NCBI RefSeq assembly: GCF_001677475.2
Contig: NZ_CP015229.1
Source of the DNA: Escherichia coli
Lineage (GTDB): Bacteria > Pseudomonadota > Gammaproteobacteria > Enterobacterales > Enterobacteriaceae
Direction: 5' to 3' (one strand)
Length of the DNA: 64,000 nucleotides
A model generated the notes under the pieces. It made no database searches. It worked only from the letters and a program-made list of their open reading frames with translations, and had not been told where the DNA came from. The position numbers and the translations under genes were made by a program. This document shows positions 3,813 to 48,979 of the stretch, piece after piece (positions within the stretch are counted from its first letter, which is position 1; each line of letters starts with the position of its first letter).

Positions 3813-3836
3813 GATTACCTCTGCATCCTGGCGCAT

Positions 3837-32062: not shown

Positions 32063-32141
32063 GAAAGAGGAGAGGCTTTATGTTCTTGAACCCTGAAGTA
32101 ATAACGACGACCGGAAAATCGCTTCGCATCACTCAAACTCA

Positions 32142-32169
32142 ATTTAACATAATATACATTATGCGCACT
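32142..32169. other. dif-like site, left junction (attL): host-like XerD arm, phage-like XerC arm
   Basis: ATTTAACATAA-TATACA-TTATGCGCACT; 27 of 28 identical to the reverse complement of E. coli dif (GGTGCGCATAATGTATATTATGTTAAAT, recalled); the single mismatch is the outermost base of the XerC arm. Confidence 0.85.
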
Positions 32170-32181
32170 AAGGTGCGCATA
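32160..32181 (+). repeat. 9-bp perfect inverted repeat of the XerC-binding arm
   Basis: TATGCGCAC-TAAG-GTGCGCATA; the left half is the XerC arm of attL, the right half an inverted copy; overlaps a 10-bp palindrome CGCATATGCG (32176..32185). Confidence 0.8.
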
Positions 32182-32202
32182 TGCGTATTCTGGAGGTGTG
32201 TC

Positions 32203-33066: not shown

Positions 33067-33322
33067 TGCAGTTTATGTAATTCATGACAAGCTGATTGCG
33101 GCTGATGTTTTTATGTTTATGGCCCAGCATGATGGTATTGCGAAAGGCAATTTGCACGCGTTCTGTAACCGTATGCAGCGCACTGACTTTGTGCTGTACC
33201 GTGTGACGGCTTATGACTTTGAAGACCAGCAGCTCGTCCCCGTGGACATTGACCGCGTTTATATTTGCACCGCTTTCCCTGCCATGCTGGAGAATGCCCA
33301 AGATGAAATCCTTGAAGCGTAA
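33053..33322 (+). CDS. Small phage protein, VP5-like
   Basis: 89-aa ORF overlapping the VP4 3' end and the VP3 start; assigned by size and position in the gokushovirus gene order, not by motif. Confidence 0.6.
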   Translation: MAHSDAVYVIHDKLIAADVFMFMAQHDGIAKGNLHAFCNRMQRTDFVLYRVTAYDFEDQQLVPVDIDRVYICTAFPAMLENAQDEILEA

Positions 33323-33815
33323 GTTCCATACCCGCTATGACCCGCCGCCGTCGCCCGGCATCGAGTTCAAAGAACCCACGATGACCCAGCAGCATTTCCG
33401 CGATGAGTGCGACATCAACAAGATTGTTGAGCGTGCGATAAGAACGGGAGATACGACAGTCTTTACCAGTGCTCAACGTGCTGATTTCTACGATGCATCT
33501 TCGATTACTGACTACGTGGACGCAATGGCTTTAATTGACGACGTTAACGACGACTTTAACAGCCTGCCGTCCACGATTCGCTCGATGTTTGGTAATAACG
33601 TTAAGCAGTACGTTGAGTGGATGAGTAATCCCGCGAACTGGAATAAAGCCCGTGAGCTTGGATTGTTGAGCGGCGGAGAGGAGTCGGCGACCGAACGCGC
33701 CAGCGTTCGCGAGTCGAGTCCTGCTCCGGCGTCCCCGCGGGAGCGTGAGCGGACTTCGGAGAGTTCCCCGAAGGGGGAGTCGGAGAAGTCTGCGAATAAT
33801 GATGCAGGCTCATGA
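33303..33815 (+). CDS. Internal scaffolding protein, VP3-like
   Basis: ORF 33213..33815; likely start MKSLKRKFHTRYDPPPSPGIEF… (33303, or 33294); acidic Ser/Glu-rich C-terminus. Assigned by position and size. Confidence 0.6.
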   Translation: MKSLKRKFHTRYDPPPSPGIEFKEPTMTQQHFRDECDINKIVERAIRTGDTTVFTSAQRADFYDASSITDYVDAMALIDDVNDDFNSLPSTIRSMFGNNVKQYVEWMSNPANWNKARELGLLSGGEESATERASVRESSPAPASPRERERTSESSPKGESEKSANNDAGS

Positions 33816-33855
33816 GCTGCATGAAAAAAACCTGAAGACGGCTCCGGCCCTTCAG

Positions 33856-33892
33856 CCTGGCACAGTGGCCCTCTTGATGTAACTGTGCCAGG
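33856..33892 (+). repeat. 11-bp perfect stem-loop in the VP3-VP1 intergenic region
   Basis: cctggcacagt-(15 nt)-actgtgccagg. Confidence 0.8.
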
Positions 33893-33904
33893 TGACACCG
33901 AAAC

Positions 33905-33932
33905 TTACAGGCGGCTCCCACGAAGCCTGTAA
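33905..33932 (+). repeat. 8-bp stem-loop in the VP3-VP1 intergenic region
   Basis: ttacaggc-(12 nt)-gcctgtaa. Confidence 0.75.
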
Positions 33933-33992
33933 AAAGGTGTCAGTTTATACAGTAGTTTGTGTAGTATTTAAACAATTCCCTGAGGGGGGTTT

Positions 33993-35705
33993 ATGAGTAA
34001 ATTCGGTCGTAAAGTACCTAGTAATGCAAAAAGTCAGCATAATTTTTCAGTAATCCCGAGTGCCAATATTCAGCGTTCGGTCTTTAACCGCAGCTCTGGT
34101 TATAAAACCACTTTTGACGCTGGTTATTTGATTCCCGTGTTTCTGGATGAGGCTTTGCCGGGTGATACATTCCACCTGAAAACGTCCATACTGGCGCGTT
34201 TATCCACGCCAGTGGTGCCGTTTATGGATAACCTGCGACTGGACATCCAGTATTTTTCCGTGCCCTACCGTCTGGTCTGGGATAACTGGCAGAAATTCAA
34301 CGGTGAACAGAAGAATCCTGGCGATTCGACGGATTACCTTATTCCGCAGATTAAAGCCCCTGCTGGCGGCTTCCCTGTAGGCTCCCTTGCCGATTATTTT
34401 GGTGTTCCCACAGGTGTGGAGAATATCAGTGTAAGCGCCCTGCCGTTCCGCGCTTATAACCTGATTTATAACGAGTGGTATCGTGATGAAAACCTGATTA
34501 ATTCCGCCCCGCTTCCGCTTGGCGATGAGGAAGAAACAGGCCTCGCCAATTTCCCGCTGCGTAAGCGTGCCAAGCGTCACGATTACTTCACAAGTGCTCT
34601 GCCGTGGCCTCAGAAGGGTGAAGGCGTTGAGATTGGTTTAGGCGTTCCGCCGTCGTATACGCTCGATTTCCCGACCTATCCTGATGGTCTGCCGTTTGTT
34701 TCTTATGGCGTTGGTGTCGATGGAGATATGACTTCGCACAATCCGACTTATCTTGCCCGTAATAATGTTAACGAAGGCTCATCATACGAGGCCTATGGTA
34801 ATGCGGTTTATATGAGTGACGGCAGGAATCCCAGCAATCCGCTGGAATGGCCTCCTATGTCGCCCTCCACTGGACGTATTGATGTTATTGGTGGTTTTAG
34901 CAGAAACCAGCCTCCGGTTACGTTAAATAAGCAAGGTGGTGAAGTTGTCGATAATCTGACAATTAACTCGCTGCGTCAGGCGTTCCAGCTTCAGCGGCTG
35001 CTTGAGCGCGATGCTCGCGGTGGTACTCGCTATATTGAGATTATCCGCTCCCACTTTGGCGTTATTTCGCCTGATGCCCGTGTACAGCGTCCCGAGTATC
35101 TCGGCTCTGGTTCATTCGACATAAATATTAATCCTGTTCTTCAAAACTCCGCGACGACCGACGCAAGTCCGCAAGGCAACCTCGCGGCCTATGGTGTCTC
35201 CGGTGGTGTTAACCGTGGATTTTCTCATTCTTTTGTGGAGCACTGTTTTGTTATTGGCCTTGTTAGCGTTCGTGCTGACCTGACCTACCAGCAAGGCATC
35301 CCGCGCATGTTCTCCCGCCAGACCCGCTTTGATTTCTACTGGCCTGCACTGGCTCACCTGGGCGAACAGGCTATCCTTAACAAGGAGATTTACGCGCAAG
35401 GCAACGACAAGGATGATGAAGTATTTGGCTACCAGGAACGTTACGCGGAGTACCGCTACCGACCGTCTCAGATTACTGGTAAATTGCGTTCTACCGACCC
35501 GCAATCCCTCGATGTGTGGCATTTAGCCCAGCGGTTCGACTCTCTGCCCGCACTGAATCAGGAGTTTATCGAGGAGAATCCACCGATGAAGCGCGTCCTC
35601 GCCGTACAGGACGAGCCTCAGTTCATCATGGATGCGTTCTTCGACCTGAAGTGTGTGCGGCCTATGCCTGTTTACTCAGTACCAGGTCTTATCGATCATT
35701 TCTAA
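33993..35705 (+). CDS. Major capsid protein (VP1, Microviridae F-protein family)
   Basis: 570-aa ORF MSKFGRKVPSNAKSQHNFSVIPSANIQRSVFNRSSGYKTTFDAGYLIPVFLDEALPGDTF…, closely resembling the conserved N-terminal block of gokushovirus VP1 (recalled Chlamydia-phage pattern …IQRS.F.RS.G.KTTFDAGYLIP…PGDTF…); RBS GAGGGGGG. Confidence 0.9.
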   Translation: MSKFGRKVPSNAKSQHNFSVIPSANIQRSVFNRSSGYKTTFDAGYLIPVFLDEALPGDTFHLKTSILARLSTPVVPFMDNLRLDIQYFSVPYRLVWDNWQKFNGEQKNPGDSTDYLIPQIKAPAGGFPVGSLADYFGVPTGVENISVSALPFRAYNLIYNEWYRDENLINSAPLPLGDEEETGLANFPLRKRAKRHDYFTSALPWPQKGEGVEIGLGVPPSYTLDFPTYPDGLPFVSYGVGVDGDMTSHNPTYLARNNVNEGSSYEAYGNAVYMSDGRNPSNPLEWPPMSPSTGRIDVIGGFSRNQPPVTLNKQGGEVVDNLTINSLRQAFQLQRLLERDARGGTRYIEIIRSHFGVISPDARVQRPEYLGSGSFDININPVLQNSATTDASPQGNLAAYGVSGGVNRGFSHSFVEHCFVIGLVSVRADLTYQQGIPRMFSRQTRFDFYWPALAHLGEQAILNKEIYAQGNDKDDEVFGYQERYAEYRYRPSQITGKLRSTDPQSLDVWHLAQRFDSLPALNQEFIEENPPMKRVLAVQDEPQFIMDAFFDLKCVRPMPVYSVPGLIDHF

Positions 35706-35722
35706 GTTACATTGTCACTTTT

Positions 35723-35745
35723 GGCCTCTGCGGAGGCCTTTTTTT
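35723..35745 (+). terminator. Intrinsic terminator/attenuator after the capsid gene
   Basis: ggcctc-tgcg-gaggcc followed by TTTTTTT. Confidence 0.7.
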
Positions 35746-35759
35746 CATGAGGTGAAATT

Positions 35760-36542
35760 ATGGGCTTTTTATCATCTGCCATTGGTGCCGCTGGTTCTAT
35801 TGCCGGCTCCCTGCTTGGTGCGAACTCTGCGAAGGATTCAGCTAACCGTGCCAATAAGTTAACGATGGATTTGGCCAAAAACGGCATCCAGTACCGTGTG
35901 CAGGATTTACGGAAAGCTGGCCTTAACCCCATTCTGGCCGTTACTGGTTCCGGTGGTCTTGGTTCCGTCAGTTCGTCAGGTATTCAGGCCGCCCAGCCTG
36001 CCGATTTTTCTGGTGTGGTTAATTCTGCGGTCAGCGTATTTGACGCATTAACGAAGCGTCAGCAGCAGGAAGTCGCTAAGGAAGGCATCATGTCCCAGAT
36101 TGCGTTACAACGTAACCAGATTGCGAATAGCGCGGCTGATGTGAAGCTCAAAGAGGCTCAGGCTGCGCAAGCCTTATCTTCCATTTCTACTGGTAATGCC
36201 CAGACTAATTTGATTAATCAGCAGGCTTTGACCGAGGCTTCCCGCCGTGCCAATATTGAAGCACAGACGGGCCTTAGTTCTGCGCAGCGGATTAGAACAC
36301 AGTATCAAACTGTACAGGACAAGGTTTTGGCTGATTATTTGAATACACCGATTGGAGCTGAAAGTGCACGTGTCAATATGGATGCTTCTCGCGGTGGTAT
36401 CGTTGGCGGCGTTAATACTTTTCTGCGTTCTTTGCAACGTGATTACCCGTCTAACTCGAACTCTGCGAAGAAAGTAAACAAGGGGGGAACCTTCCCCCCT
36501 TCACAGTTCCAACAGCAATTGATTAATAACTATCGGAGGTAA
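35760..36542 (+). CDS. Minor capsid / DNA pilot protein (VP2-like)
   Basis: 260-aa ORF with Gly/Ala/Ser-rich N-terminus (MGFLSSAIGAAGSIAGSLLGANSA…) and Gln/Ala-rich predicted coiled region; RBS GAGGTG; position after VP1. Confidence 0.7.
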   Translation: MGFLSSAIGAAGSIAGSLLGANSAKDSANRANKLTMDLAKNGIQYRVQDLRKAGLNPILAVTGSGGLGSVSSSGIQAAQPADFSGVVNSAVSVFDALTKRQQQEVAKEGIMSQIALQRNQIANSAADVKLKEAQAAQALSSISTGNAQTNLINQQALTEASRRANIEAQTGLSSAQRIRTQYQTVQDKVLADYLNTPIGAESARVNMDASRGGIVGGVNTFLRSLQRDYPSNSNSAKKVNKGGTFPPSQFQQQLINNYRR

Positions 36543-36543
36543 T

Positions 36544-36663
36544 ATGGCTCGTTCTCGCCGTCGTATGTCCAAGCGTTCTTCCCGTCGTTCGTTCCGTAAG
36601 TACGCAAAGACGCATAAACGTAACTTTAAAGCCCGCTCTATGCGTGGTGGAATTCGTCTTTGA
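36544..36663 (+). CDS. Small basic DNA-binding protein (VP8 / J-like), absent from the ORF track
   Basis: ATG at 36544, stop TGA 36661..36663; translation MARSRRRMSKRSSRRSFRKYAKTHKRNFKARSMRGGIRL (39 aa, roughly 40% Arg/Lys). Confidence 0.7.
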   Translation: MARSRRRMSKRSSRRSFRKYAKTHKRNFKARSMRGGIRL

Positions 36664-36693
36664 TTGACAAAGTTGATCGTAACGATCTATGAT
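36664..36693 (+). promoter_or_regulatory. Putative sigma70 promoter at the prophage right end
   Basis: TTGACA (36664..36669), 18-bp spacer, TATGAT (36688..36693); the spacer contains GATCGTAACGATC with two GATC sites. Pattern match only. Confidence 0.35.
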
Positions 36694-36716
36694 AATTATC
36701 GTAAGTCGTTGTTTTT

Positions 36717-36744
36717 GTTAAACTAAATATACATTATGCGCACC
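36717..36744. other. dif-like site, right junction (attR): phage-like degenerate XerD arm, host-like XerC arm
   Basis: GTTAAACTAAA-TATACA-TTATGCGCACC; XerD arm 7 of 11, central region 6 of 6, XerC arm 11 of 11 versus dif. Confidence 0.8.
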
Positions 36745-36820
36745 AACATAAACCAAGGGAGAATCCAGTCGTTGGCGGTCATGATTGTCCTGCTCATTAA
36801 CAACGGCCAAACCCCATATC

Positions 36821-38143
36821 TTACTTAATACCGTATTCTCGGCTTAACCGACGGTGCAACCTCAACACATTGGTTTCAACTGCCGTCACCACGTTCTTCG
36901 GAAAATCTGTCGGTAATGAAGTCTTCACGTTATCCAGTGCTGCCGGAATCATTCTGGCAAAGTCACTCAGGATTTCATGCATCTGCACTTCCGGAAATTT
37001 CAGCACCTTTGCTGTCGCCAGAAAATGTCGCGGATAAATTTTATCGATTGCCGTTTTTTTGCCTTTGGATGAGTTAAGCCCCATTGCCAGTTTGAGATCG
37101 CTAATGTGTATTCCTGCGCCACCCAATACCGGAAATGCTGAAATGATGTCGTAAAATGGCGTGAGTCGATAACTGCCGCCAGCCTGAATAAATACGGAGA
37201 AGTTTTTTGCATGGCCATCCGTTGCGCCAATCAACCACTGGAACACCTGAAACTTCATAAAATCATAGCGATCTTTCAGCGCCTCGCTGGACCCCATCAA
37301 AAAAGCCATGATCCGCGCGATACCTGGGCCTCCATCTGATTCATATTTCACCGATGAAGGTAAACCGAATGTCTGACACATATCCTCCTGTGGCAAGCGA
37401 AGTAAAACCGTTCGCTCAGCATTCCAACGCCTGTCAAAACGTTCGACCGCTAACGCACGCACATTTCCCGCTTTAATGATTTCTGCGTCCGGCACATTCA
37501 ACCCAAGTTCTTTCGCCAGCAGCAGACAGTAATACTCATTATCAACGCTTTGGCTGAGATCGAGCGTCGCATTGGGCTGCCTGATTTCGCCAATCGGTAA
37601 TTTAATGATGTGTGTCGTCGGCGTTATTCCTTTCGGAATGCACCAGTCATTGCCTATTCTGAGCAGCGCTGTCTTCTCCTGCGCGCCAGCAACCGAGATG
37701 CGAAAGTCATTTTCTTCTCTAATCATGCCTAGAGGGATATCTGCTTTATAAGCCGTTAATACTTCTTCAAGCCTGGCTTCAGTGAGCTGCTCCCATGCCA
37801 TTATCGGGCGCGTTATGGTTTCATTTTCGGGTAATAACGTTACGGCACCAACGCTGTCTCGCCCTATTTCTGACAATAAATCAAACGGTTGTCTGGATTT
37901 AGCATGATAACGTTTAACGATCCGGTCACGTACAATCGGGCTATCGGGTAGCAGGTTATCGAAGAAGTTAAATACGGCATCAGAGGTGATATTCCCCCTC
38001 TGCAATGGCAGCGAAAGTGACAACGGTCTGGCATAACGGTTAGCTAACCACTCCGGTGCATACTTAAAGGTGTGCGCGCCATTGGCTAACTTCGTTAACT
38101 CGCCTACCCGCTGGTTGTTCATCCAAGTGACAAGTTTAGGCAT
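36821..38143 (-). CDS. hipA: Ser/Thr kinase toxin HipA
   Basis: ORF 36821..38200 trimmed to MPKLVTWMNNQRVGELTKLANGAHTFKYAPEWL… (440 aa); start overlaps the hipB stop by 1 nt. Confidence 0.92.
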   Translation of the reverse strand: MPKLVTWMNNQRVGELTKLANGAHTFKYAPEWLANRYARPLSLSLPLQRGNITSDAVFNFFDNLLPDSPIVRDRIVKRYHAKSRQPFDLLSEIGRDSVGAVTLLPENETITRPIMAWEQLTEARLEEVLTAYKADIPLGMIREENDFRISVAGAQEKTALLRIGNDWCIPKGITPTTHIIKLPIGEIRQPNATLDLSQSVDNEYYCLLLAKELGLNVPDAEIIKAGNVRALAVERFDRRWNAERTVLLRLPQEDMCQTFGLPSSVKYESDGGPGIARIMAFLMGSSEALKDRYDFMKFQVFQWLIGATDGHAKNFSVFIQAGGSYRLTPFYDIISAFPVLGGAGIHISDLKLAMGLNSSKGKKTAIDKIYPRHFLATAKVLKFPEVQMHEILSDFARMIPAALDNVKTSLPTDFPKNVVTAVETNVLRLHRRLSREYGIK

Positions 38144-38409
38144 TACCACTCCAGATCTTGCTGTTCTGTTGATTCTGGCGAGGCATTTTTCGTGTCGCAT
38201 AGCGTCATTGAGAGTTCAAGCGACTGTAAAATCTTAAAAAATGTCGTGAGCGTGGTATTGTCAGGGTTGTTTTCGAAATTGGAAATTGTCGCCTGCTTAA
38301 TACCGATTTTTTTCGCCAGCTCGCTCTGCGTCCAGCCATTTTGCTGACGAACCAGTTTCATTGCATTCGCTAATTGCGTTGGGCTATAAATCTTCTGAAA
38401 GCTCATCAT
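38143..38409 (-). CDS. hipB: Antitoxin and HTH repressor HipB
   Basis: ORF 38143..38427 trimmed to MMSFQKIYSPTQLANAMKLVRQQNGWTQSELAKKIGIKQATISNFENN… (88 aa). Confidence 0.9.
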   Translation of the reverse strand: MMSFQKIYSPTQLANAMKLVRQQNGWTQSELAKKIGIKQATISNFENNPDNTTLTTFFKILQSLELSMTLCDTKNASPESTEQQDLEW

Positions 38410-38430
38410 GTCATACGTCCATAGCAAATT

Positions 38431-38544
38431 TATCCGCTCAAGGGGATATTATCAGTTTTATCCTTTAGTGGGGATAAAGTCAATCAGGAAACACATTTTA
38501 TCCGCTCTACGGGATAAACGCTGCGATATCCGCGATCGCGGATA
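38431..38544. promoter_or_regulatory. Four HipB operators upstream of hipBA
   Basis: TATCC-N8-GGATA at 38431..38448 (TATCCGCTCAAGGGGATA), 38459..38476 (TATCCTTTAGTGGGGATA), 38499..38516 (TATCCGCTCTACGGGATA) and 38527..38544 (TATCCGCGATCGCGGATA). Confidence 0.9.
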
Positions 38545-38619
38545 AAAAGGAGAATTTAAAAGTCGTTTGAAGTCGGCAATATTAAGCCGCATGCCATCTC
38601 TACATGCGGCTTATACGGT

Positions 38620-41600
38620 TTACCAGCTATATTTAACACCCAGCATGCCCTGAGTATCGCTATAGCCTTTATCACCTAGTTGCACACCGACATTCCCCCA
38701 CAGGCTAAGGTTGTTATTTACTTTCGCCTCAACCCCGGTACGTACTTCACCGAGATTACGCGCACCATCACGGCTTACGGTTTGACCATTCATCTTCACG
38801 GCGTAGACTTTGCTGTTGTTGATCCAGTTCGCTTCAATGTAAGGCTGGAACTCACGCTGTTTACCATTGTCACGCTGGTGATGACTGTTCAGGTAGGTTT
38901 TCACCCCAAGCCGCGTTTGCACGTTTCCGTCACCTTCCGTTTCAATGCGTGTTCCGTCTTTCCGGGTATGGTCAGAATTTTTCACACCCATCCAGGTGAT
39001 TTGCACCTGTGGCTGGACGTACCAGGTATTCAGCGTCCCTTCGCTGCCGCTAAATATTCCCGCTTCAAAGGTATACCCACCCTCAACAGAGGCCGTCAGA
39101 CCGCGAGAATCATAGTCGTCAGCAGAACGGTTATCGGAACTGACGCTGTTATCAAACCAGTTATACAGCGCCCAGCTGTCAACATAAGCGCCGGTCTTAT
39201 TCGCATCGTTCTGATACCAGGTCGCGTAAATCCCAGCGCTGTACCCGCTGATGCGCCCATCCGATTTATAACCCACACGATTACTCTGAGTATTACTGTG
39301 CTGATTGGCATAGCCTGCCATAATGCCGAGGTGCCAGCGATCCTGCGCGTTGCTACTCCACTGCGCCAAATCGCCGCCTAGATGCAATACATAGCGGTTA
39401 GCCTGAGTATTTAGCTGACCGTCACCGGTCCTGAAACGTTCGTGCCCCCCGACATGACGCATCCACATACTGCTTGCTGCACCCTGAGAATGCAGTGAAT
39501 CTGCATACTGTGGCTCACCCAGACGGTCGTGTAAGCGATGGCTAAACAGCGAGTTAGCTGCGGCAATGTTGCTGATATAGCTTCCGGCCTCCGGGCGATA
39601 AACTGATGGGCCTTCCGGATCCACAACAGGGGGATTATTAATGGGATCGGGTGTATCCGGTGGCGTTACGCCGTCCCATTTACTGGTCAGATACCAGTTT
39701 TTCTCGTCATTCCCCTTCCCTTTAGCCAGCGTGTAGACGTATGCCCCAGCTTCGACAGTTCCGGTGGTCAGCGCGAAGTTACCTGCAGAATTACCGCCAA
39801 CCTCAATGAGTTCAATACCGTTGACCGTATGTGCACCGACGCCGCCAATGTTATCAACCCGAACGCGAGTGCTTCCTTGTGTATCGCCTTTCACGTTCAT
39901 CTTATCGGTGGGCGAATTATCGCCGCCCAGCGTCGCGTTGAACGTTATCAGGCCATTGTTTCCGGTATCGTTGCCGTTAACGGTCAGTACATTCCCCGGT
40001 TTTCCTCCTTCACTATTCATTTGAACCGTGCCGCCATTCTCCAGATTGCCGCCGATAGTGGTTTTGGCGACACGCAGTGTCCCCCCAGACATAACGTTCA
40101 CATCACCTGCAGTGGTGACATTTCCCGACATCACACCGCTGTTGTGGATATTAATGTGCTGACTTGCCATATTAATGGCAGAGTCGGAACCGAAAGCAAT
40201 TTCACCACCCACGATATCCGTCGTACCCTTATACGTCGCGGAATCGTTGTTAAGAGTCAGGATCCCGGTCCCCAGTTTTGTCACATCACCGCTACCGCTG
40301 ATACTGTGCGTCATCGCCCAGCTACGCTCAGTGGAGATGGTGAGCAGGCCATTATTGATAACGGAAGCATCACCCAGGTTTTTCTGCTCGTTGACGCTGA
40401 GCGCGCTACCTGCATCGATGTTGAATTGCCCCACAAAGCGGCTATTATCGCCATCCAGCTCTACATCTGTCCTGGCGGTTGCGCTCACGATACCCTTCCC
40501 GCTTATGCTATTACGCAGTTCGCCAGTCACGTTTTTTAGCGTTAACAGACCGTCATTGGCAATATTTCCTCTGCCTAACCCCTGCGTATTATCGAGGCTG
40601 ACTTCCGCATTTGGGCTAACGCTGGTTAACGCATTGTAGCGTGCATTAAGCCCCTCGATAGCCAGCGTTCCCCCTGTAACATTCAGATTACCGCCACCTG
40701 TCAGTTCACCCTGACTGATCCCACCTTTATTTACCGTCAGCGCCCCCTCTTTGAACAAAACAGTCGAACCCATCTGCCCGGTGAATGTCTCTACCGTCTG
40801 CGTCGATCCATTAAGATCGACGATGGCCGCGTTGCGGATGTTCAGTTCCCGGGTGTTGCCCAGCGCGCCATCCGCATCGGTACGTAATGTCCCCATCTGA
40901 ACATAGGTTGCCCCCTGATAGTCGTTCTGACCGTTGGAAAGCGAAACCTGTCGCACCGTATTGATTGCCAGATCCCCTTCACCACCGATTTTTGCCGACA
41001 TATCGGCCGTTGCGCCATAGGCTCCGCCATGTTCGGCTAACGTCAGCTTTTGCCCACCATGGATGTTCAGCGCTTTCAGCCCATAGTTAACATACAAACC
41101 ATCACCAGGTACGGTCGTGAGGCGGAATCCATAATCACCCTCGGCGACCACTGTTCCGTTTTGTGCAATGTGTAACGTTTTGTCCGCTTCCACCTCGTCG
41201 CCCTGTAAATCACGTAACGTTAATGAGCCACCCGACCCAATAACCGTTTGCGCCTTCACCAGTTGAACGCCGACATGGCTATCATCGTGTTCCAGCAAAT
41301 TGAGCGTCGTCAGAGGGTTATTCGCCATGGGATCATTCCACGGTTTAGGCACGTCGATAAGCACGTCGCCCGTCCCGTTTACCTGATAGTTACGGCCTTT
41401 CCAGGTGTAGTCACCCGCGCCGACAACCAGCGTATCGACGCTGATATATCCCTCCGCAAGCGTCGCAGCAGGTATATCCGTATCGAAAGTGAGCGTACCG
41501 CCATTCATGGCTAGTCCACCAATGGATTGCTCTCCCACTTTTACCGATGTGGTATTTTCACTGTCAGACTGAAGCATCGCGTGAGTAAGCGCAGCGGTGT

Positions 41601-44040
41601 TGTCGCGTTCCAGTGTGAAGGTACTGTCTTTCAGTTGGGCAACACCGGCGAATTCAGTTCCTGTTGCATGGGTAAAGCCAAACATTTTGTCGGAGGATGA
41701 CAGCTGCACTCGCATCAAGCCATCGCCTTTGAGCGCATTGGTCAGCGTGTAATCTCCTGCGCTGTTCGTTGATGCGAGAATGTCTAGCGTACCGGGGCTT
41801 GCAATGGTTACTTCACTCGAACCCATGCCTGTTACCCCATCTGCCGTATGTGACGCAATAGTCAGGAGGCCGTCATTGACCAGCGTTTTACCGCTATAAG
41901 TATTCCCTGCATTGAACACCGTATGGCCTGCATCATGCATCACTTTTCCGCCTTTATCGTCACCCGTAATCAGCATATCGACCTGGTAGCCGGCATCACT
42001 GTTATTAGTATGATTAAAGACAAAAACGCCTTCGCCATGACCAAACTCTACTTTCGTCGCGTTGGTGATAAATCCGGCATCTGCCGCCGCCTCACCGTGA
42101 GCAGCACCAATGTTTAGCGTTCCTACAGCAGGATCAAAAAGACCTAAGTAAACTTCGCCACCCTCAACATTTAGCGTGCCGTTATTCGTCAGGGTTAACG
42201 TACCCGTGCCAGTCGTCCCTACGTTCATATTGAATGTTTCAAGAAGAGAGTTCTGCCCATCCACCCTCACGTCGCCCTTACTTTTGTCATTGAGAGCTAT
42301 CTGTGTATCACGCGCTTTAACTATACCTCCGGTGGTAATATTCAGTTCACCCGAGCCTAATACACCGACCTGTAGCAATTGGGCGTTATTAGAAGACGTC
42401 TTTAAATTCCAAAGACTATCCGTTGAAATATTAACTATTCCCTTACCGGGGGAATTTCCTCCGATAAATCCATAGCCCGTTGAATTAAGTGTGGCACCAT
42501 TACTGACATTTACGATACCGCTACCAAAATTACCGACATTGATACCCACAGTATCGAACGATGATGTCGCATCCATCAGGTTCAGTGTGCCGATACTGCT
42601 TGCTTTATCGCCCAAAAAAGTAATATTTTGCGATACGAACTTACCGCCATCGCTAATATTGAGGTTTCCGACGCCCGCAACACCAATGGTGGTATAGACA
42701 TTCTTATTGACCTCCCATATCCCCCCCGTGGTGATGCTAACCTTCCCGACGCCGGTTTCGCCATAACCGAGTGAGCTTCCTCCGTTGCTGACAACAAGCC
42801 CCTCATTACTGATATTCATTTCGCCGTGGCCGTCATAACCAAGATTAGTTCCGAGATTAGTGATAACGGAGTTCTTATCCTTAACAGTAATGTTGCCAGT
42901 GCCTGTTTCTTTCATCCCCGCAGTGATAATTCCCGAATCTACTTTACCTGCACGCGAGACATTAAGTTCACCGTCGCCAGCATCACCGATATAGATATAG
43001 CGGAAAGCTTCGCCTGTTCCGAGGAAATTCCAATGCCCTTTATCGGTCACGTTGACGACACCGTGGGAACCGTCCTGAACGCCCACCAATGAATATTCTT
43101 TGTTATTAATTAGTCCATTATTGGAAATATTGACTGTGCCATTACCGAAATATCCATTATAGAGTCTGCGTACCGTGATGACAGAGTCTTGATCCTGCAC
43201 ATTCAGGGTTCCGATACCGGTAGCATTGCCACCGATAATCGTATTTTCAGCCGTAATCAGCCCACCCTCGCGAATAGTCGCTTCTCCCGTCCCTTGATTA
43301 CCAATTTGAAATTCAATTGAGGAGTCGTTATTTTTTATTAGCCACTCACCGCCCTTTTCAACGACAACCTGGCCATTACTGCCCGTCTGATAGCCTAAAA
43401 TGGCGACGATTGAACTCGTGACATAACCCTTATCTGTAATATTTAATGAACCTGTGCCATAGCTACCTATTTCGAATAACTCCGTCGTCAGAACCGAGTC
43501 CTCTCCCTCAACATTAATCATCCCGACGCCTGCAGCTTGAGTACCTAATCTTAAATAGCCTCCATCAACGTGACCTTTCTGTTTAATATTCAGCGTCCCC
43601 GTTCCGGATTGACCCACATTTAAAGGCCTTGCATTATTTCCGCTATCATACAATCGCCAGGTGCCACCCAAAACATTAACGGTGCCCTCTGAGTCCTCAT
43701 TAGCGCCAATGACACTGGTAGTAATAGTGGTTAAGGAGGCATTTCCGCCAGCCAAAATATTAAGCACTCCAGTGCCATACCAGCCAACCAGATAGGCATC
43801 ATAAGCAACATCAGTATCAATATTGGTAATCAGACCATTATCAACTTCAAGACTTGCACCAGACGCTGAACCGCTTAGTGCCAGCAAAACACCCAGCGTC
43901 AATCTACTGAATTTCGTTGTCAGCCCAGAGGATTTATGTAAATTAACCGTCGATGTTTTACCTACCCTGAGAGTTAATTCCGAGCAGACCTGAAATACCT
44001 GTAGGGTGCAATTCCATATCACGCGATAGATTCTATTCAT
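38620..44040 (-). CDS. Large AIDA-I-type autotransporter adhesin, intact
   Basis: 1806-aa ORF with extended signal peptide MNRIYRVIWNCTLQVFQVCSEL…, long Gly/Thr/Asn-rich repeat passenger, and C-terminal β-barrel ending …GMLGVKYSW; recalled as fragmented (yneO/ydeK/ydeU) in K-12. Confidence 0.85.
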   Translation of the reverse strand: MNRIYRVIWNCTLQVFQVCSELTLRVGKTSTVNLHKSSGLTTKFSRLTLGVLLALSGSASGASLEVDNGLITNIDTDVAYDAYLVGWYGTGVLNILAGGNASLTTITTSVIGANEDSEGTVNVLGGTWRLYDSGNNARPLNVGQSGTGTLNIKQKGHVDGGYLRLGTQAAGVGMINVEGEDSVLTTELFEIGSYGTGSLNITDKGYVTSSIVAILGYQTGSNGQVVVEKGGEWLIKNNDSSIEFQIGNQGTGEATIREGGLITAENTIIGGNATGIGTLNVQDQDSVITVRRLYNGYFGNGTVNISNNGLINNKEYSLVGVQDGSHGVVNVTDKGHWNFLGTGEAFRYIYIGDAGDGELNVSRAGKVDSGIITAGMKETGTGNITVKDKNSVITNLGTNLGYDGHGEMNISNEGLVVSNGGSSLGYGETGVGKVSITTGGIWEVNKNVYTTIGVAGVGNLNISDGGKFVSQNITFLGDKASSIGTLNLMDATSSFDTVGINVGNFGSGIVNVSNGATLNSTGYGFIGGNSPGKGIVNISTDSLWNLKTSSNNAQLLQVGVLGSGELNITTGGIVKARDTQIALNDKSKGDVRVDGQNSLLETFNMNVGTTGTGTLTLTNNGTLNVEGGEVYLGLFDPAVGTLNIGAAHGEAAADAGFITNATKVEFGHGEGVFVFNHTNNSDAGYQVDMLITGDDKGGKVMHDAGHTVFNAGNTYSGKTLVNDGLLTIASHTADGVTGMGSSEVTIASPGTLDILASTNSAGDYTLTNALKGDGLMRVQLSSSDKMFGFTHATGTEFAGVAQLKDSTFTLERDNTAALTHAMLQSDSENTTSVKVGEQSIGGLAMNGGTLTFDTDIPAATLAEGYISVDTLVVGAGDYTWKGRNYQVNGTGDVLIDVPKPWNDPMANNPLTTLNLLEHDDSHVGVQLVKAQTVIGSGGSLTLRDLQGDEVEADKTLHIAQNGTVVAEGDYGFRLTTVPGDGLYVNYGLKALNIHGGQKLTLAEHGGAYGATADMSAKIGGEGDLAINTVRQVSLSNGQNDYQGATYVQMGTLRTDADGALGNTRELNIRNAAIVDLNGSTQTVETFTGQMGSTVLFKEGALTVNKGGISQGELTGGGNLNVTGGTLAIEGLNARYNALTSVSPNAEVSLDNTQGLGRGNIANDGLLTLKNVTGELRNSISGKGIVSATARTDVELDGDNSRFVGQFNIDAGSALSVNEQKNLGDASVINNGLLTISTERSWAMTHSISGSGDVTKLGTGILTLNNDSATYKGTTDIVGGEIAFGSDSAINMASQHINIHNSGVMSGNVTTAGDVNVMSGGTLRVAKTTIGGNLENGGTVQMNSEGGKPGNVLTVNGNDTGNNGLITFNATLGGDNSPTDKMNVKGDTQGSTRVRVDNIGGVGAHTVNGIELIEVGGNSAGNFALTTGTVEAGAYVYTLAKGKGNDEKNWYLTSKWDGVTPPDTPDPINNPPVVDPEGPSVYRPEAGSYISNIAAANSLFSHRLHDRLGEPQYADSLHSQGAASSMWMRHVGGHERFRTGDGQLNTQANRYVLHLGGDLAQWSSNAQDRWHLGIMAGYANQHSNTQSNRVGYKSDGRISGYSAGIYATWYQNDANKTGAYVDSWALYNWFDNSVSSDNRSADDYDSRGLTASVEGGYTFEAGIFSGSEGTLNTWYVQPQVQITWMGVKNSDHTRKDGTRIETEGDGNVQTRLGVKTYLNSHHQRDNGKQREFQPYIEANWINNSKVYAVKMNGQTVSRDGARNLGEVRTGVEAKVNNNLSLWGNVGVQLGDKGYSDTQGMLGVKYSW

Positions 44041-44524
44041 ATAAACGCTCCATATACAAATAATACAGCCACGAAAGAGATGAGTCGTCAGACATTAAAA
44101 ATGAAACTTATTAAATTGTCAGAGGTCTGTATTGAGTGTTGGTTGGAGGTGGGAAGGTGTCAATTTGGCTAATTTGCTAATACTTTCGAATTGATAGATT
44201 AAAAATTGCATAGTTCTTATTTTATTTAAAAATGGACCATGAGTTATTGTTGCTTAATAAGAAAACTGTTTCTTTCAATAAGAAAACTATCATCATCATA
44301 TTTAACAAATAATAGCACTAATTGCTAAAAACCGAAGTTTATTAAACCCCTTTTGCATCCATTAATGTCTTTAGGAATATTCGCTATAAAATAAGGGTTA
44401 TGCTTAATGCTTTAAGGAAAATAGCAATTTTCCCTTGAATATAGTACTGGTGATGGAACGATGAATCTGCAAGCTGGCATTTAACAAGCCAGCTCTAAAA
44501 GAAGGGAAATAAGAATAACTATAC

Positions 44525-44562
44525 TCAAAAACTAACAGCCACGGTCATCATGATGTGGCTGT
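44525..44562 (-). terminator. Putative intrinsic terminator downstream of lsrK
   Basis: Stem acagccac/gtggctgt (44535..44562) followed on the transcript by tagtttttgag. Confidence 0.45.
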
Positions 44563-44570
44563 CAATGAAA

Positions 44571-46163
44571 CTATAACCCAGGCGCTTTCCATAACGACGT
44601 CGTCAGTCCATGATCAACCAGCCCCAGCTGATCCTGATAAACTGCCTGCCACTTATCGCGTGAATCCTGATAAAGTTCATGCTTTTTCGGGTCTGGTGTG
44701 TGCGTCCGTTCCCAGCGAACCAGGCGTTCTCCGGTTTCTGCCATTGATGAAAAAATTCCGGCACCGACGCCAGCTGCAATGGCACATCCTAATGCAGTGG
44801 CTTCTTTGACCACCGGAATATTGACGGGTAATCCCGAGACATCAGCGAGAATTTGACTCCATAATTTCCCTTTTGAACCTCCACCTGCAAAGACTAACGA
44901 TGAAGGATGAATATTCGAGAAATCAGCAATTTGCTGCAAGTTACACGCTGATACAATCGCCGCATTTTCTTCCAGCGCACGGAACAATGTCGCTTTGTTA
45001 CATTTATCCGGGTCAATAGACAAATTAATAAAGGAAGGTGCAGCGTGATACCAAGTTTTAAAGCGCATTCTGTCGGAGAATATCGGCATTACGCCCCACG
45101 ACCCAGGCGGCACACGACTGGCCATCTCTTCCAGCAACGTATAGGTGTCGATGCCTAAACGTTCGGCAATCAGTTTTTCTTCGGCACAGAAAGCATCGCG
45201 AAACCAGCGCATGGTGAGTCCGGTAAAAAAGCTTATAGATTCAGCTTGTACCATGCCAGGAATAACATGGGGATTAACGCGCACGTTCATTTCTGGGTCT
45301 GTCGCCGGCGCGGCTAAGTTTACAACTTGCTGCCAGAATGTGCCGCCAAGAACAGCGGTTTGTGCCGGACGCACAACGCCTAACCCCAGGCAACCAAGCT
45401 GCACGTCGCCTCCTCCAACGACCACAGGAGTGCCCACCTTCAGACCGCAGAGTTCCGCCGCTTGTGAACTTACCACGCCCAGCAATGTGCCGGTTTCTTT
45501 GACAGGAGAAAGAATATCGGCACGCAGGCCAGCCATATCCAGCAATGCAGGTTTCCAGTCACGGGTGGTTAGATCAAGAAGTCCCGTGGTGCCAGCGTTA
45601 GAGGGATCCACCGCAAGTTCGCCGCTGAGCATATAGGCCAGCCAGTCGCTGATCATGGTGATGGTTGATGCCTGACGGTAAATATCGGAACGATGGTGCG
45701 CCAGCCAAAGTAATCTGGGGATGGCACTTAAAGCCAGCGTTTGTCCGGTCGCGCGATAAACTTCGTTTTCAAAGGTATTGTTGTGCAGTTCTTTAAGTTC
45801 GCTAACTTCGCGCGCCGCTCTGGCATCCACATTGGCGCAGGCCCAGATCGGTGTTCCTTCATTGTTATATAAAACAATGCCTTCACGCATCGAACATGCC
45901 GAAACGGCAGCGATATACTCAGGGGCTATGCCGGCGTTGTGCAGCGCCTGGCGCATACACTCACACGCCAGTTTCCAGTTTTTGTTGAGATCAAATTCCA
46001 TAGAACCAGGAACGTCCGGTACTGCCAGATGCTGCCACTCCGCCTGTCCCACTGCTATTTGATTGCCTTCCAGGTCGAATATCACAGCCCGAATACTTCC
46101 GGTGCCTGCATCCAGCGCCATAAGGTAATACTTTGATTCTGAAGGGGTAAAGAGTCGAGCCAT
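44571..46163 (-). CDS. lsrK: Autoinducer-2 kinase
   Basis: 530-aa FGGY-family kinase [33 protein letters not shown]… recognised as LsrK. Confidence 0.92.
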
Positions 46164-46241
46164 TAGATTATCCTCGGCTTATGCGTTCTGTCTGTTCCTC
46201 TATACGTTCTCCATCATTCCCGGTAATAAGGTCATGCAAAT

Positions 46242-47195
46242 TTAACTACGTAAAATCGCCGCTGCTGTATCCTGATCGGTAACCAGTGCGTTGATATAAC
46301 CGCCTTTCATTGCAGCAGCAATTGCTTCGGCTTTATTTTCTCCCCCTGCCACGCCAACCCGGACGGGTATGGTCTTCAGCGCGCTTAAAGGTAAGCCAAT
46401 CAGTTCGTTATGTATTTTAATATCCGTGACAACGTCACCTTTTGCATCAAAAAAGTAGCCTAAAATGTCGCCAACTGCACCTTTTCGGCCAATCATTAAC
46501 TGTTCGCCCTGGCTGATATAGCCGGAGCGAATGATTGTCGCGTCGTCTTGTTGACTCACGGCCCCAATGCCGACAATCGCCACATCCGCTGCTTGCGCGG
46601 CTAACAGAACATCTTTGACGCAATTTTCATTTTTTAGCGTACGGGCAATATCAGCGGAGGATGCCCGCAGCGGAGCCGGAATAATATTCACACTGCACGC
46701 CGCGTTAAGCTGCCCGATACCCGTCATATAAGAACCGACGCCACCGGAGAGCGTGACCAGGCGAATTTGCTGTGACGAAATAAAACCACTTAAGCGTTGC
46801 AGCGTATTCATGGTTGCCTCGCCAAAACCAATCGCCAGCATCTGTTGTGGTTGAAGTAAACTCATCAACATATGCGCCGCGCCTATCCCTAGTCGCCCGC
46901 CGACATCAGCATCCGCAAGCCCAGGGATCACCCGGACATGTTGCAGCGAAAACTGACGACGTAATTGTGTTTCATGTTCCAGACAGCCTTCAAAGCGAGA
47001 ATTAATCTGCACGCGAATAATGCCGGACTGATGCCCTTTTTCCAGTAATCGCGACACTTTCAAGCGAGTCAGCCCGAGACGATCGCTGATCTCGCTCTGG
47101 GTCAGCCCGTCGTGGTAGTAAAACCACGCGATCCGCGCGACCTGTTCTTCTTCACACATTCCCTGTTCTGAAATTGCCGAATCGTTGATTGTCAT
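46242..47195 (-). CDS. lsrR: lsr operon repressor (SorC family)
   Basis: 317-aa ORF with N-terminal HTH; divergent from lsrA. Confidence 0.92.
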
Positions 47196-47211
47196 AATTC
47201 ATTCTTCACTT

Positions 47212-47244
47212 TGAACATATTTAAATCTTTAATGCAATTGTTCA
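47212..47244. promoter_or_regulatory. Palindrome TGAACA-N21-TGTTCA, lsrR-proximal; candidate LsrR operator
   Basis: tgaacatatttaaatctttaatgcaattgttca in the lsrR-lsrA intergenic region. Confidence 0.5.
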
Positions 47245-47379
47245 GTTCTTGCGCATTTATATCTGTGATAGCAACCACAGTTTGACTCTACGAGCATGAA
47301 CAAACGCAACCGTGAAAATCAAAATAGCATAAATTGTGATCTATTCGTCGGAAATATGTGCAATGTCCACCTAAGGTTA

Positions 47380-47412
47380 TGAACAAATTAAAAGCAGAAA
47401 TACATTTGTTCA
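47380..47412. promoter_or_regulatory. Palindrome TGAACA-N21-TGTTCA, lsrA-proximal; candidate LsrR operator
   Basis: tgaacaaattaaaagcagaaatacatttgttca, about 30 bp upstream of the lsrA start. Confidence 0.5.
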
Positions 47413-47443
47413 AAACTCACCTGCAAAACTGAACGGGGGAAAT

Positions 47444-48979
47444 ATGCAAACGAGTGATACCTGCGCGTTACCGCTACTTTGCGCCCGCTCGGTTTATAAA
47501 CAGTATTCAGGGGTCAATGTCCTGAAAGGCATCGATTTTACGTTGCACCAGGGGGAAGTCCACGCCCTGCTTGGCGGCAATGGTGCCGGTAAATCGACGT
47601 TAATGAAGATTATTGCCGGTATTACCCCTGCTGATAGCGGTACGCTGGAGATTGGGGGCAATAATTACACCAGATTAACGCCAGTTCATGCTCATCAGTT
47701 GGGCATTTATCTCGTTCCCCAGGAACCGCTGCTTTTCCCAAGCCTGTCGATAAAAGAAAACATCCTGTTTGGACTGGCAAAAAAACAGCTCTCCATGCAG
47801 AAAATGAAGAACTTGCTGGCGGCTCTGGGCTGCCAGTTTGATCTGCATAGTCTGGCAGGATCGCTGGATGTCGCCGATCGCCAAATGGTGGAAATCCTCC
47901 GCGGGCTGATGCGCGACTCGCGGATTCTGATCCTCGATGAACCTACCGCCTCGCTTACCCCTGCGGAAACCGAACGCTTGTTTAGTCGCTTGCAAGAGCT
48001 GCTTGCTACTGGCGTGGGTATTGTTTTTATCTCGCATAAGCTGCCGGAAATTCGCCAGATTGCCGATCGAATTAGCGTGATGCGCGACGGAACCATCGCC
48101 TTAAGCGGCAAAACCAGCGAACTGTCTACCGACGACATTATTCAGGCCATCACGCCAGTGGTACGGGAAAAATCGCTCTCTGCCAGCCAAAAATTATGGC
48201 TGGAGTTACCTGGTAACCGCCCACAACATGCCACCGGAACGCCGGTGCTGACACTGGAAAATCTGACCGGCGAAGGTTTCAGGAATGTCAGCATGACGCT
48301 CAATGCCGGAGAAATTCTGGGCCTGGCTGGGCTGGTGGGAGCCGGACGCACAGAACTGGCCGAGACGCTATATGGTCTACGTACTTTGCGTGGCGGACGC
48401 ATTATGCTGAATGGTAAAGAGATCAATAAATTATCCACTGGAGAACGTTTACTGCGCGGTCTGGTTTATCTGCCGGAAGATCGCCAGTCATCCGGACTGA
48501 ATCTCGATGCTTCGCTGGCCTGGAACGTCTGCGCCCTTACTCATAACCTTCGTGGATTCTGGGCGAAAACCGCGAAAGAAAATGCCACCCTGGAACGTTA
48601 TCGTCGGGCGCTGAATATTAAATTTAACCAACCGGAACAAGCTGCACGGACATTATCCGGTGGCAACCAGCAAAAAATCCTCATTGCCAAATGCCTGGAA
48701 GCTTCGCCGCAAGTATTGATTGTCGATGAGCCGACGCGCGGCGTGGATGTCTCGGCGCGTAATGATATCTACCAACTGTTGCGCAGCATCGCAGCACAGA
48801 ATGTGGCTGTGCTGCTTATCTCCTCTGATCTGGAAGAGATCGAACTGATGGCAGATCGCGTGTATGTGATGCATCAGGGCGAAATTGCCCACTCTGCACT
48901 GACCGGGCGCGATATTAATGTCGAGACCATTATGCGCGTTGCCTTCGGCGATAGTCAGCGTCAGGAGGCGTCATGCTGA
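47444..48979 (+). CDS. lsrA: AI-2 ABC transporter ATP-binding protein (tandem ATPase)
   Basis: 511-aa ORF with Walker [10 protein letters not shown] and a second nucleotide-binding domain. Confidence 0.92.

Follow-up and report, generated by a model that had tools for sequence, protein, structure and literature searches.

An intact ECSE_1600/YneO family autotransporter gene between lsrK and hipBA in Escherichia coli

The 64,000-nt stretch of E. coli DNA analyzed here (the window) very probably carries an intact chromosomal allele of ECSE_1600/YneO, whose product is a monomeric autotransporter of the classical kind (type Va) with a translocator of the AIDA-I type and, most likely, a role in surface adhesion, aggregation or biofilm formation. 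An intact copy of this gene is in itself already known and ordinary. It is the common wild-type state and has been on record since 2008, when the SE11 genome paper gave its length as 1806 aa and listed SE11 and HS with an intact copy, MG1655 with a disrupted one and B2 strains with none (PMC2608844). The features of the gene and its flanks are collected in Table 1.

Table 1. Features of the autotransporter gene and adjoining regions, in window coordinates
Feature	Position	Strand	Residues or codons	Basis
ECSE_1600/YneO family autotransporter ORF, complete	38620..44040	-	1806 aa	NF011422
Extended signal peptide	43855..44040	-	aa 1-~62	ESPR PF13018, sequence reading
N-terminal passenger, ~22 beta-helix rungs	42106..43776	-	aa 89-645	regex spacing, TIGR04393, AF2
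Conserved C-terminal passenger module with PATR repeats	40291..41943	-	aa ~700-1250	PATR matches, homologue alignments
GGGTGGTG (V-G-G-E), interrupted G8 run	40203..40210	-	codons 1277-1280	allele comparison
G6 run	40081..40086	-	codons 1319-1320	allele comparison
Autochaperone	39727..40047	-	aa 1332-1438	PF18883 AC_1, E 1.8e-24
Beta-barrel translocator	38689..39468	-	aa 1525-1784	PF03797, E 4.2e-41
AT-rich spacer between lsrK and the autotransporter gene, 530 bp	44041..44570	-		sequence
Shine-Dalgarno GGAG, 7 nt before the ATG	44048..44051	-		sequence reading
Sigma-70 promoter-like element CTGACA-17-TTTAAT	44094..44122	-		explicit motif search, alignment
lsrK terminator-like hairpin CAGCCAC...GTGGCTG with T-rich tail, at upstream edge of spacer	44526..44561	-		sequence reading, inferred
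Hairpin GCCGCATG-N9-CATGCGGC then TTAATATT	38578..38610	-		sequence reading
hipBA promoter region, four perfect HipB operators (TATCC-N8-GGATA)	38431..38544	-		pattern search

The reading frame and its family

The ORF list and translation give one uninterrupted frame with an ATG start and a single terminal stop after 1806 codons, just as the preliminary description had it, and no other large ORF in the list competes with it. The translation starts MNRIYRVIWNCTLQ, with the N-terminal motif MNRIYRVIWN. It aligns over its full length (1-1806 of 1806) to the NCBIfam model NF011422 ("ECSE_1600 family autotransporter") at 4084 bits, the curated cut-off being 2335 bits. Judged from its sequence, this is the same gene as yneO of K-12 (ydeK/ydeU, b1509-b1510) and ECSE_1600 of SE11, with which it shares the 1806-aa length, the position between lsrK and hipBA, and the upstream spacer. 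The allele differs at the DNA level by some 3-4% from those of all complete RefSeq E. coli genomes, the best match being 97.1%. The preliminary description gave the K-12 locus as a set of pseudogene fragments, and the alignment bears this out: in contrast to the intact window allele, the K-12 copy has an IS2 at codon ~560 and an extra G, giving a +1 frameshift, at codon 1318.

It is scarcely credible that the open frame is an assembly artefact. Homopolymer runs in the gene are error-prone for long-read assemblies, a consideration with no specific support here, but exactly the same protein is found on at least 24 independent public contigs (NCBI and Logan assemblies). The DNA is identical across 11,421 nt to NJSK01000007 (E. 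coli MOD1-EC2703, O36:H14), and the G8 run of other alleles (see below) is missing altogether from this one.

Domains and passenger fold

The features of a type Va autotransporter are present at the level of sequence and model, with a Sec signal peptide of the ESPR type, a beta-helical passenger with its autochaperone, and a barrel on the same polypeptide. Both ends of the protein are as first described. The MNRIYRVIWN start belongs to an extended signal peptide, with Pfam ESPR (PF13018) matching aa 1-47 (E 2.1e-12), after which come a basic n-region (KFSR) and the hydrophobic h-region LTLGVLLALSGSASGA at aa 47-62; by the -3/-1 rule, signal peptidase I would likely cleave after A62. The beta-barrel translocator is matched, besides PF03797, by TIGR01414 (1.3e-119) and by the AIDA-I beta-domain structure 4MEE (5.4e-85 over aa 1345-1806), and the autochaperone also by Pertactin (2.5e-10) and the IcsA autochaperone structure 3ML3 (2.1e-16). 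Some records label the product a lipoprotein ("putative lipoprotein YdeK" in K-12, "barrel domain-containing lipoprotein"). This label was rejected: the protein has just two Cys residues, aa 11 and aa 19, both inside the ESPR, and hence no lipobox.

The passenger was expected to be rich in repeats, which holds for the protein and not for the DNA. Its N-terminal part consists of degenerate rungs of about 25 aa, for which a regex search with the motif G-x-G-x-L-N-I gave intervals of 24-30 aa, and nine stretches match the T5SS/PEP-CTERM repeat model TIGR04393. In the DNA of the gene, direct repeats do not go beyond chance-level 18-22-mers, and tandem arrays are absent. The C-terminal module is common to hundreds of other, often giant, autotransporters at 30-48% identity, with the best-matching stretches mostly at query aa 640-1191. 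An AF2 model of aa 60-1250 is all-beta, with a pLDDT of 92, and confidently renders the passenger, about 1270 aa long, as a continuous beta-solenoid.

The best Foldseek matches to this model in the PDB are Ag43 (4KH3, 7KOH, 7KO9, 7KOB) and TibA (4Q1Q), at E-values from 4e-6 to 5e-4, with TM-scores of just 0.13-0.18 when normalized to the query, as expected for long solenoids and functionally weak evidence. These nearest solved passenger folds both belong to chromosomal E. coli autotransporters for aggregation and biofilm formation, from which the present protein differs in a much longer passenger and a sequence identity of only 12-15%. Ag43 is phase-varied by Dam/OxyR. The likeness to AIDA-I lies in a homologous autochaperone and beta-barrel (the AIDA-I model NF033176 aligns at aa 1296-1805) and in a passenger that is likewise a beta-helix. 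With 337 bits, however, the protein falls far short of the NF033176 cut-off of 1200 and is therefore not AIDA-I; the passenger sequences are unrelated, with rungs of ~25 aa here and 19-aa repeats there. No glycosyltransferase of the AIDA-I/TibA type (Aah/TibC heptosyltransferase) lies beside the gene, whose neighbors are lsrK and hipB. Membership in the AIDA-I, MisL, ShdA or YfaL families was rejected, since only the C-terminal translocator aligns and scores are far under the cut-offs.

The term "adhesin" is inferred from fold and family. It stays so because no experiment on the protein was found in the literature, where searches for functional studies of yneO, ydeK, ydeU or ECSE_1600 gave only genome papers, SELEX/ChIP tables and mutant lists. 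Another surface or secreted role, such as serum resistance, a toxin or enzyme activity, or service as a phage or colicin receptor, is very unlikely: Pfam and NCBIfam gave no catalytic domain in the passenger, the model is nearly all beta-solenoid, and adhesins come nearest to it in fold, while the SPATE proteases Hbp, EspP and Pet match only at E > 0.1 in Foldseek. Such a role would be in keeping with the recurrent independent loss of the gene (see below), as for a surface structure that is sometimes costly, for example a phage receptor or an immune target. On the favored reading, and as is usual for this class of protein, Sec would export the protein, the ESPR would delay its release from the inner membrane, and BAM would insert the barrel. 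The passenger would then be threaded outward C-terminus first and fold on the autochaperone into a rigid surface beta-helix, which most likely would mediate adhesion, cell-cell aggregation or biofilm formation.

Flanking regions

The gene order lsrR-lsrK-autotransporter-hipBA matches that of annotated E. coli genomes. The position next to hipBA and the AT-rich upstream region of 530 bp, both pointed out in the preliminary description, were found as given: hipB (38143-38409) and hipA (36821-38143) adjoin the gene directly downstream, and the lsrK stop and the ATG are separated by a spacer of exactly 530 bp, whose GC content is 32.1% (window 47.3%, gene 49.9%).

The K-12 orthologue of the spacer lies between ydeK and lsrK, and the two align without gaps at 97.2% identity. 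The K-12 region is tabulated as a "promoter island" to which H-NS binds according to every ChIP-chip study considered (category "A" in Table 1 of PMC3661553); it is also marked HNS in a sigma-70 SELEX map (PMC3946193), and an RpoS SELEX peak lies there (PMC5493296). The CTGACA-17-TTTAAT element has been assigned to yneO in K-12 by genomic SELEX (PMC3946193), and has a single exact match in the window. This published motif was located by explicit search, not by consensus scan; a strict scan for sigma-70 and terminator consensus sequences gave as many sites as expected from shuffled sequence, none of them promoter-like on the gene strand in the spacer. The element and the Shine-Dalgarno site are conserved in an eight-strain alignment, both hexamers being identical in 8/8 strains with one spacer change in O157, and the stretch holding the lsrK hairpin is nearly unchanged. 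Given the near identity (97%) to the H-NS-bound K-12 spacer in the ChIP-chip data, H-NS probably keeps the gene silent under laboratory conditions; the literature gave no hns derepression data for yneO.

Downstream, a hairpin beginning 10 nt past the stop codon is the probable terminator of the autotransporter gene, on a reading of its sequence; it is absent from the list of the strict terminator scan. An Rfam scan of positions 35000-47500 gave no RNA family. The HipB operator pattern TATCC-N8-GGATA has six matches in the window, as against 1.44 expected by chance; the operators belong to the hipBA neighbor, not to the autotransporter gene.

Distribution, selection and poly-G runs

The gene was matched in 4363 of 5426 complete E. 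coli genomes. Among 60 evenly sampled matching genomes, 25 (~40%) have an indel-free span; the remainder are interrupted by IS1, IS2, IS3 or IS4, altered in length by -6 to +8 nt, or affected by deletions. With over half of its carriers disrupted, the gene is therefore dispensable and often lost. This could also mean that the window copy is intact by chance of timing, as a cryptic, never-expressed gene drifting toward the pseudogene state seen in K-12, O157:H7 and numerous other strains, and the absence of the gene from B2 strains (PMC2608844) and H-NS binding at the K-12 spacer (PMC3661553, PMC3946193) point the same way. Such drift is nonetheless quite unlikely in view of the coding sequence itself. 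Comparisons with the intact alleles of IAI1, ATCC 8739 and TUM14771 gave dN/dS values of 0.17, 0.15 and 0.19 at a dS of 0.08-0.11, and indicate purifying selection. The C-terminal passenger module has the lowest dN/dS of five segments relative to IAI1 and ATCC 8739 (0.09-0.10), and a value of 0.18 relative to TUM14771. Escherichia and Pseudocitrobacter alike retain the exact length of 1806 aa, the Pseudocitrobacter orthologues being 83-86% identical. Two clusters at 90% identity with 1806-aa representatives, to both of which the window protein is 96% identical, have 5726 and 18868 member sequences, and most sampled members of the larger one are full length; conservation of the promoter and Shine-Dalgarno site likewise argues against drift.

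The frameshifts of other strains' alleles cluster in poly-G runs, which may be a new observation. Most other E. coli alleles have at codons 1277-1280 a G8 run, as in IAI1, ATCC 8739, K-12 and O157, that varies in length and is prone to frameshifts. Across 12 complete genomes it occurs as G5, G6, G7, G9, G10 and G12, switching the reading frame, and 57 metagenome contigs include G8 (35), G9 (5), G7 (2) and G5 (1), with variants at 25x and 80x coverage among them. The window allele instead has GGGTGGTG, in which the run is broken by two synonymous G-to-T changes. The second run, at codons 1319-1320, is G6 here and G8 in K-12, where it is the site of the frameshift. Both sit just upstream of the autochaperone. 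With G7 (42721-42727) and G6 as its longest runs, the window allele lacks the long homopolymer of a contingency gene. Copies with the interrupted run were intact in 8 of 11 metagenome contigs, as compared to 11 of 25 for the others, a difference that is not significant (Fisher p = 0.16).

Slipped-strand contingency switching at the G8 and G6-G7 runs in most E. coli lineages, with the window allele "locked-on", is one possible explanation, though an unlikely one; a plain mutational hotspot speeding one-way gene loss fits the poly-G data equally well. Phase-variable proteins of the autotransporter type with homopolymer tracts are found in Bordetella and Chlamydia (Pmp), and the common E. coli alleles resemble them in having within the ORF a G8 run whose length differs among isolates (G5 to G12), with a change of frame. 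The differences are that E. coli is mismatch-repair proficient and that the window allele has lost the run. Simple repeats are a typical means of phase variation for surface proteins in Neisseria, Haemophilus, Campylobacter and Bordetella, but to our knowledge are not considered one in E. coli; a literature search on E. coli autotransporters whose phase variation is driven by homopolymers gave other genera only.

As a discovery, the intact copy carries little weight: the gene, its length, its intact, disrupted or absent pattern and the K-12 pseudogene were published in 2008, and a curated NCBI model exists. The poly-G hotspot would be of modest importance if proven to be a real switch, in which case it would make this a homopolymer-driven phase-variable autotransporter in E. 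coli, with the surface protein turned off and possibly on again. The practical value of the window allele is as a clean, intact and slippage-resistant version of an uncharacterized E. coli autotransporter, suited to cloning for functional work.

The autotransporter locus and its neighbors

The window's ORF list has a single ORF of 1806 aa, opening with ATG, at the autotransporter locus. Its translation begins MNRIYRVIWNCTLQVFQ and contains no internal stops, so the uninterrupted reading frame proposed in the preliminary description holds, as does its position next to hipBA (see table). The 530-bp region upstream, described there as AT-rich, has a GC content of 32.1%, compared with 47.3% for the window and 49.9% for the gene itself; lsrK and lsrR lie beyond it, in the same orientation as the gene. 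On the other side, 210 bp separate the autotransporter stop codon from hipB, and the HipB operators sit within this spacer. Matches to their consensus number six in the window, versus 1.4 expected by chance.

Coordinates of features at the autotransporter locus and in the adjacent prophage
Feature	Position in window	Strand	Details
Autotransporter gene	38620-44040	minus	1806 aa
ESPR			aa 1-47; Pfam
PATR repeats			autotransporter; Pfam
AC_1 autochaperone			aa 1332-1438; Pfam
Pertactin domain			autotransporter; Pfam
Autotransporter beta-domain			aa 1525-1784; Pfam
Poly-G run 1	40203-40210		gene nt 3831-3838, codons 1277-1280 (V-G-G-E)
Poly-G run 2	40081-40086		gene nt 3955, codons 1319-1320
Shine-Dalgarno GGAG		minus	7 nt 5' of autotransporter ATG; sequence
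Spacer	44041-44570		530 bp
Promoter-like element CTGACA-17-TTTAAT	44094-44122		
lsrK	44571-46163	minus	upstream of autotransporter
HipB operators TATCC-N8-GGATA	38431-38544		four perfect palindromes; hipBA promoter region
hipB	38143-38409		downstream of autotransporter
hipA	36821-38143		downstream of autotransporter
Gokushovirus prophage	32142-36744		4.6 kb
dif-flank AGTGCGCATAATGTATATTATGTTAAAT	32142-32169		
dif-flank GGTGCGCATAATGTATATTTAGTTTAAC	36717-36744		
Replication initiator	32080-33066		prophage
Structural protein	33213-33815		prophage
Major capsid protein	33993-35705		prophage
DNA pilot protein	35760-36542		prophage

In three Pseudocitrobacter contigs (L012-L014) the orthologues are exactly 1806 aa long, with 83-86% identity, and are again followed by hipBA; in one of them (L014) a perfect dif core lies ~85 bp after hipA. 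Upstream, lsrK is replaced by a bluF/bluR-ymgAB cluster or a xanthine-dehydrogenase-like cluster. The order autotransporter-hipBA-dif is therefore conserved across two genera, and is an old terminus-region block rather than a recent island.

Directly downstream of hipA in the window, a gokushovirus prophage (Microviridae) has inserted at dif, flanked by one bacterial dif site (1 mismatch) and one phage dif-like site (4 mismatches). Over 11,421 nt the window DNA is 100% identical to the draft contig NJSK01000007, from E. coli MOD1-EC2703, serotype O36:H14 (supplementary file 1, PMC7062461), and the prophage is the clade-H enterogokushovirus listed for that strain, with the same two dif motifs (Kirchberger & Ochman, 2020; PMC7062461). 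The interval 35700-38619, a query that takes in the right end of the prophage, reached at least 80% coverage in only 6 of 5426 complete genomes.

Protein family, predicted fold and proposed export

Aligned over its whole length (1-1806 of 1806), the protein scores 4084 bits with NCBIfam NF011422, “ECSE_1600 family autotransporter”, whose cut-off is 2335 bits. Models for MisL, AIDA-I, ShdA and YfaL matched only the C-terminal translocator, with scores far under their cut-offs. The extended signal peptide and β-barrel translocator read earlier from the sequence correspond to the Pfam ESPR and Autotransporter beta-domain matches. The passenger had also been called repeat-rich. This is correct for the protein, where G-x-G-x-L-N-I occurs in some 22 copies between aa 89 and 645 as degenerate rungs of ~25 aa, but not for the DNA, as no meaningful direct or tandem repeats were found in the gene.

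Among solved structures, sequence comparison links the protein only to the AIDA-I beta-domain (4MEE, 5.4e-85, aa 1345-1806) and the IcsA autochaperone. For aa 60-1250, an AlphaFold2 model built on a 45-sequence alignment gives the passenger as a nearly unbroken all-beta solenoid (mean pLDDT 92), with top PDB matches to Ag43 (4KH3, 7KOH, 7KO9, 7KOB) and TibA (4Q1Q), then IcsA, whereas SPATE proteases match it only at E > 0.1; no catalytic domain was detected. Among 1.84 billion representative proteins, 3291 relatives of the passenger were found at E <= 0.001. Most of them align to aa ~700-1250, a module found again in autotransporters 2000-7700 aa long.

From what is known of type Va autotransporters, export would be Sec-dependent and delayed by the ESPR, with signal peptidase I probably cutting near A62/S63 (-3/-1 rule). 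BAM would insert the barrel, and the passenger would be extruded C-terminus first, folding on the autochaperone, for which the domains are present. The resulting surface beta-helix of ~1270 aa would most likely serve in adhesion or aggregation. Literature searches found no functional study of the ECSE_1600/YneO protein, and “adhesin” is a putative label taken solely from modeled fold and family.

Distribution, disruption and probable maintenance

The gene is a known one. The paper on the SE11 genome (2008; PMC2608844) lists ECSE_1600 at 1806 aa and gives the gene as whole in SE11 and HS but disrupted in MG1655, E24377A and O157 Sakai; the B2 strains CFT073, UTI89 and 536 lack it. A megablast search with the window gene hits 4363 complete E. 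coli genomes out of 5426, and in 3952 the hit covers at least 80% of the query. The best identity for the gene is 97.1% and that of its flanks, as of the window overall, is uniformly ~97.7-98.2% across this RefSeq collection, from which the window lineage is therefore missing; the exact protein is found on at least 24 public contigs. Two 90%-identity protein clusters with 1806-aa representatives hold 5726 and 18868 member sequences; Pseudocitrobacter contributes further clusters of 1806 aa, at 83-86% identity.

Of 60 rows sampled evenly from the complete genomes with a match, 25 had a single-piece span of exactly 5421 nt and 19 a net length change (+1, -1, -2, -6 or +8), while four carried an IS insertion (IS1, IS2, IS3) and 12 a deletion or truncation. 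All three 5421-nt loci checked are annotated as intact and all three of other spans as “frameshifted”, but LCP22S3_I2 is frameshifted despite spanning 5421 nt, so the intact fraction is at most 25/60. The preliminary description was correct that the K-12 locus is a pseudogene: in a K-12 derivative, IS2 splits the gene at about codon 560 (window ~42359-42363) and one extra G is present at codon 1318 (window 40087). In BL21(DE3) and some other strains, such as TUM9868 and E100341, only the 3' part of the gene is left, abutting an ABC transporter permease gene that by position probably belongs to the lsr operon, which suggests deletions that took out lsr genes along with the 5' end of the autotransporter gene. 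Some database proteins of the family, 1924-1975 aa long (P0058, P0076, P0071), carry fused FGGY_N (LsrK) or HipA domains and are presumably deletion fusions with neighbors or gene-calling artefacts.

Against three intact E. coli alleles, dN/dS is 0.15-0.19 (dS 0.08-0.11). The aa ~700-1250 module gives 0.09-0.10 against IAI1 and ATCC 8739 and 0.18 against TUM14771, the lowest of five segments in two of the three comparisons. The length is identical to the residue in two genera, and the final ~100 bp of the spacer, near-invariant in eight strains, contain the promoter-like element assigned to yneO by genomic SELEX (PMC3946193). Together these argue for a gene that is maintained rather than decaying.

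The K-12 spacer, 97.2% identical to that of the window without gaps, appears in a table of “promoter islands” as bound by H-NS in every ChIP-chip data set considered (PMC3661553), and holds an RpoS SELEX peak (PMC5493296). For the K-12 orthologue, silencing by H-NS thus has good support; by extension, H-NS would keep laboratory expression of the window gene low as well. Overall, the preliminary description was accurate and its interpretation is supported: the window holds the common wild-type form of a gene that is already named, published and widespread.

Poly-G runs in other alleles

In alignments, the small indels of disrupted alleles cluster in poly-G runs directly upstream of the autochaperone. 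Run 1 is G8 in IAI1, ATCC 8739, K-12 and O157; twelve further complete genomes, each annotated as “frameshifted”, have G5, G6, G7 (three strains), G9 (five strains), G10 or G12 instead. Run 2 reads G6, or G7 where an A has changed to G, with G5 in ET625 and G8 in K-12, the latter being precisely the K-12 frameshift. The two runs account for most small frameshifts of the gene. A 200-nt query around them, 3.7% of the gene, showed a net indel in 15 of the 52 sample rows that aligned completely; besides these, the alignments of four O157 rows end early where the O157 8-bp duplication lies. For the whole gene, a net small indel was present in 19 of the 48 rows that covered the full query, 44 of which were single-piece.

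Homopolymer errors in long reads are a genuine confounder here, so run 1 was also scanned in 57 public metagenome contigs, many with SPAdes-style short-read assembly names. It was G8 in 35, G9 in five, G7 in two, G5 in one, GGGTGGTG in 13 and GGCCGGTG in one, and contigs of 25x and 80x coverage are among the variants. Variation is lower at shorter runs of this gene (a G6 run in 1/46, two G7 runs in 2/30 and 0/17; G8 versus G6, Fisher p = 0.013).

The window allele has GGGTGGTG in place of G8 at run 1, and a third run is broken too, so the main hotspot is missing there. Interrupted-run alleles were intact in 8/11 cases versus 11/25 for the others, not a significant difference in this small sample (p = 0.16). 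Either a contingency switch or a simple mutational hotspot could account for the pattern. As a side observation the clustering may be new, and this hotspot in other alleles is the sole angle here that might repay more work.
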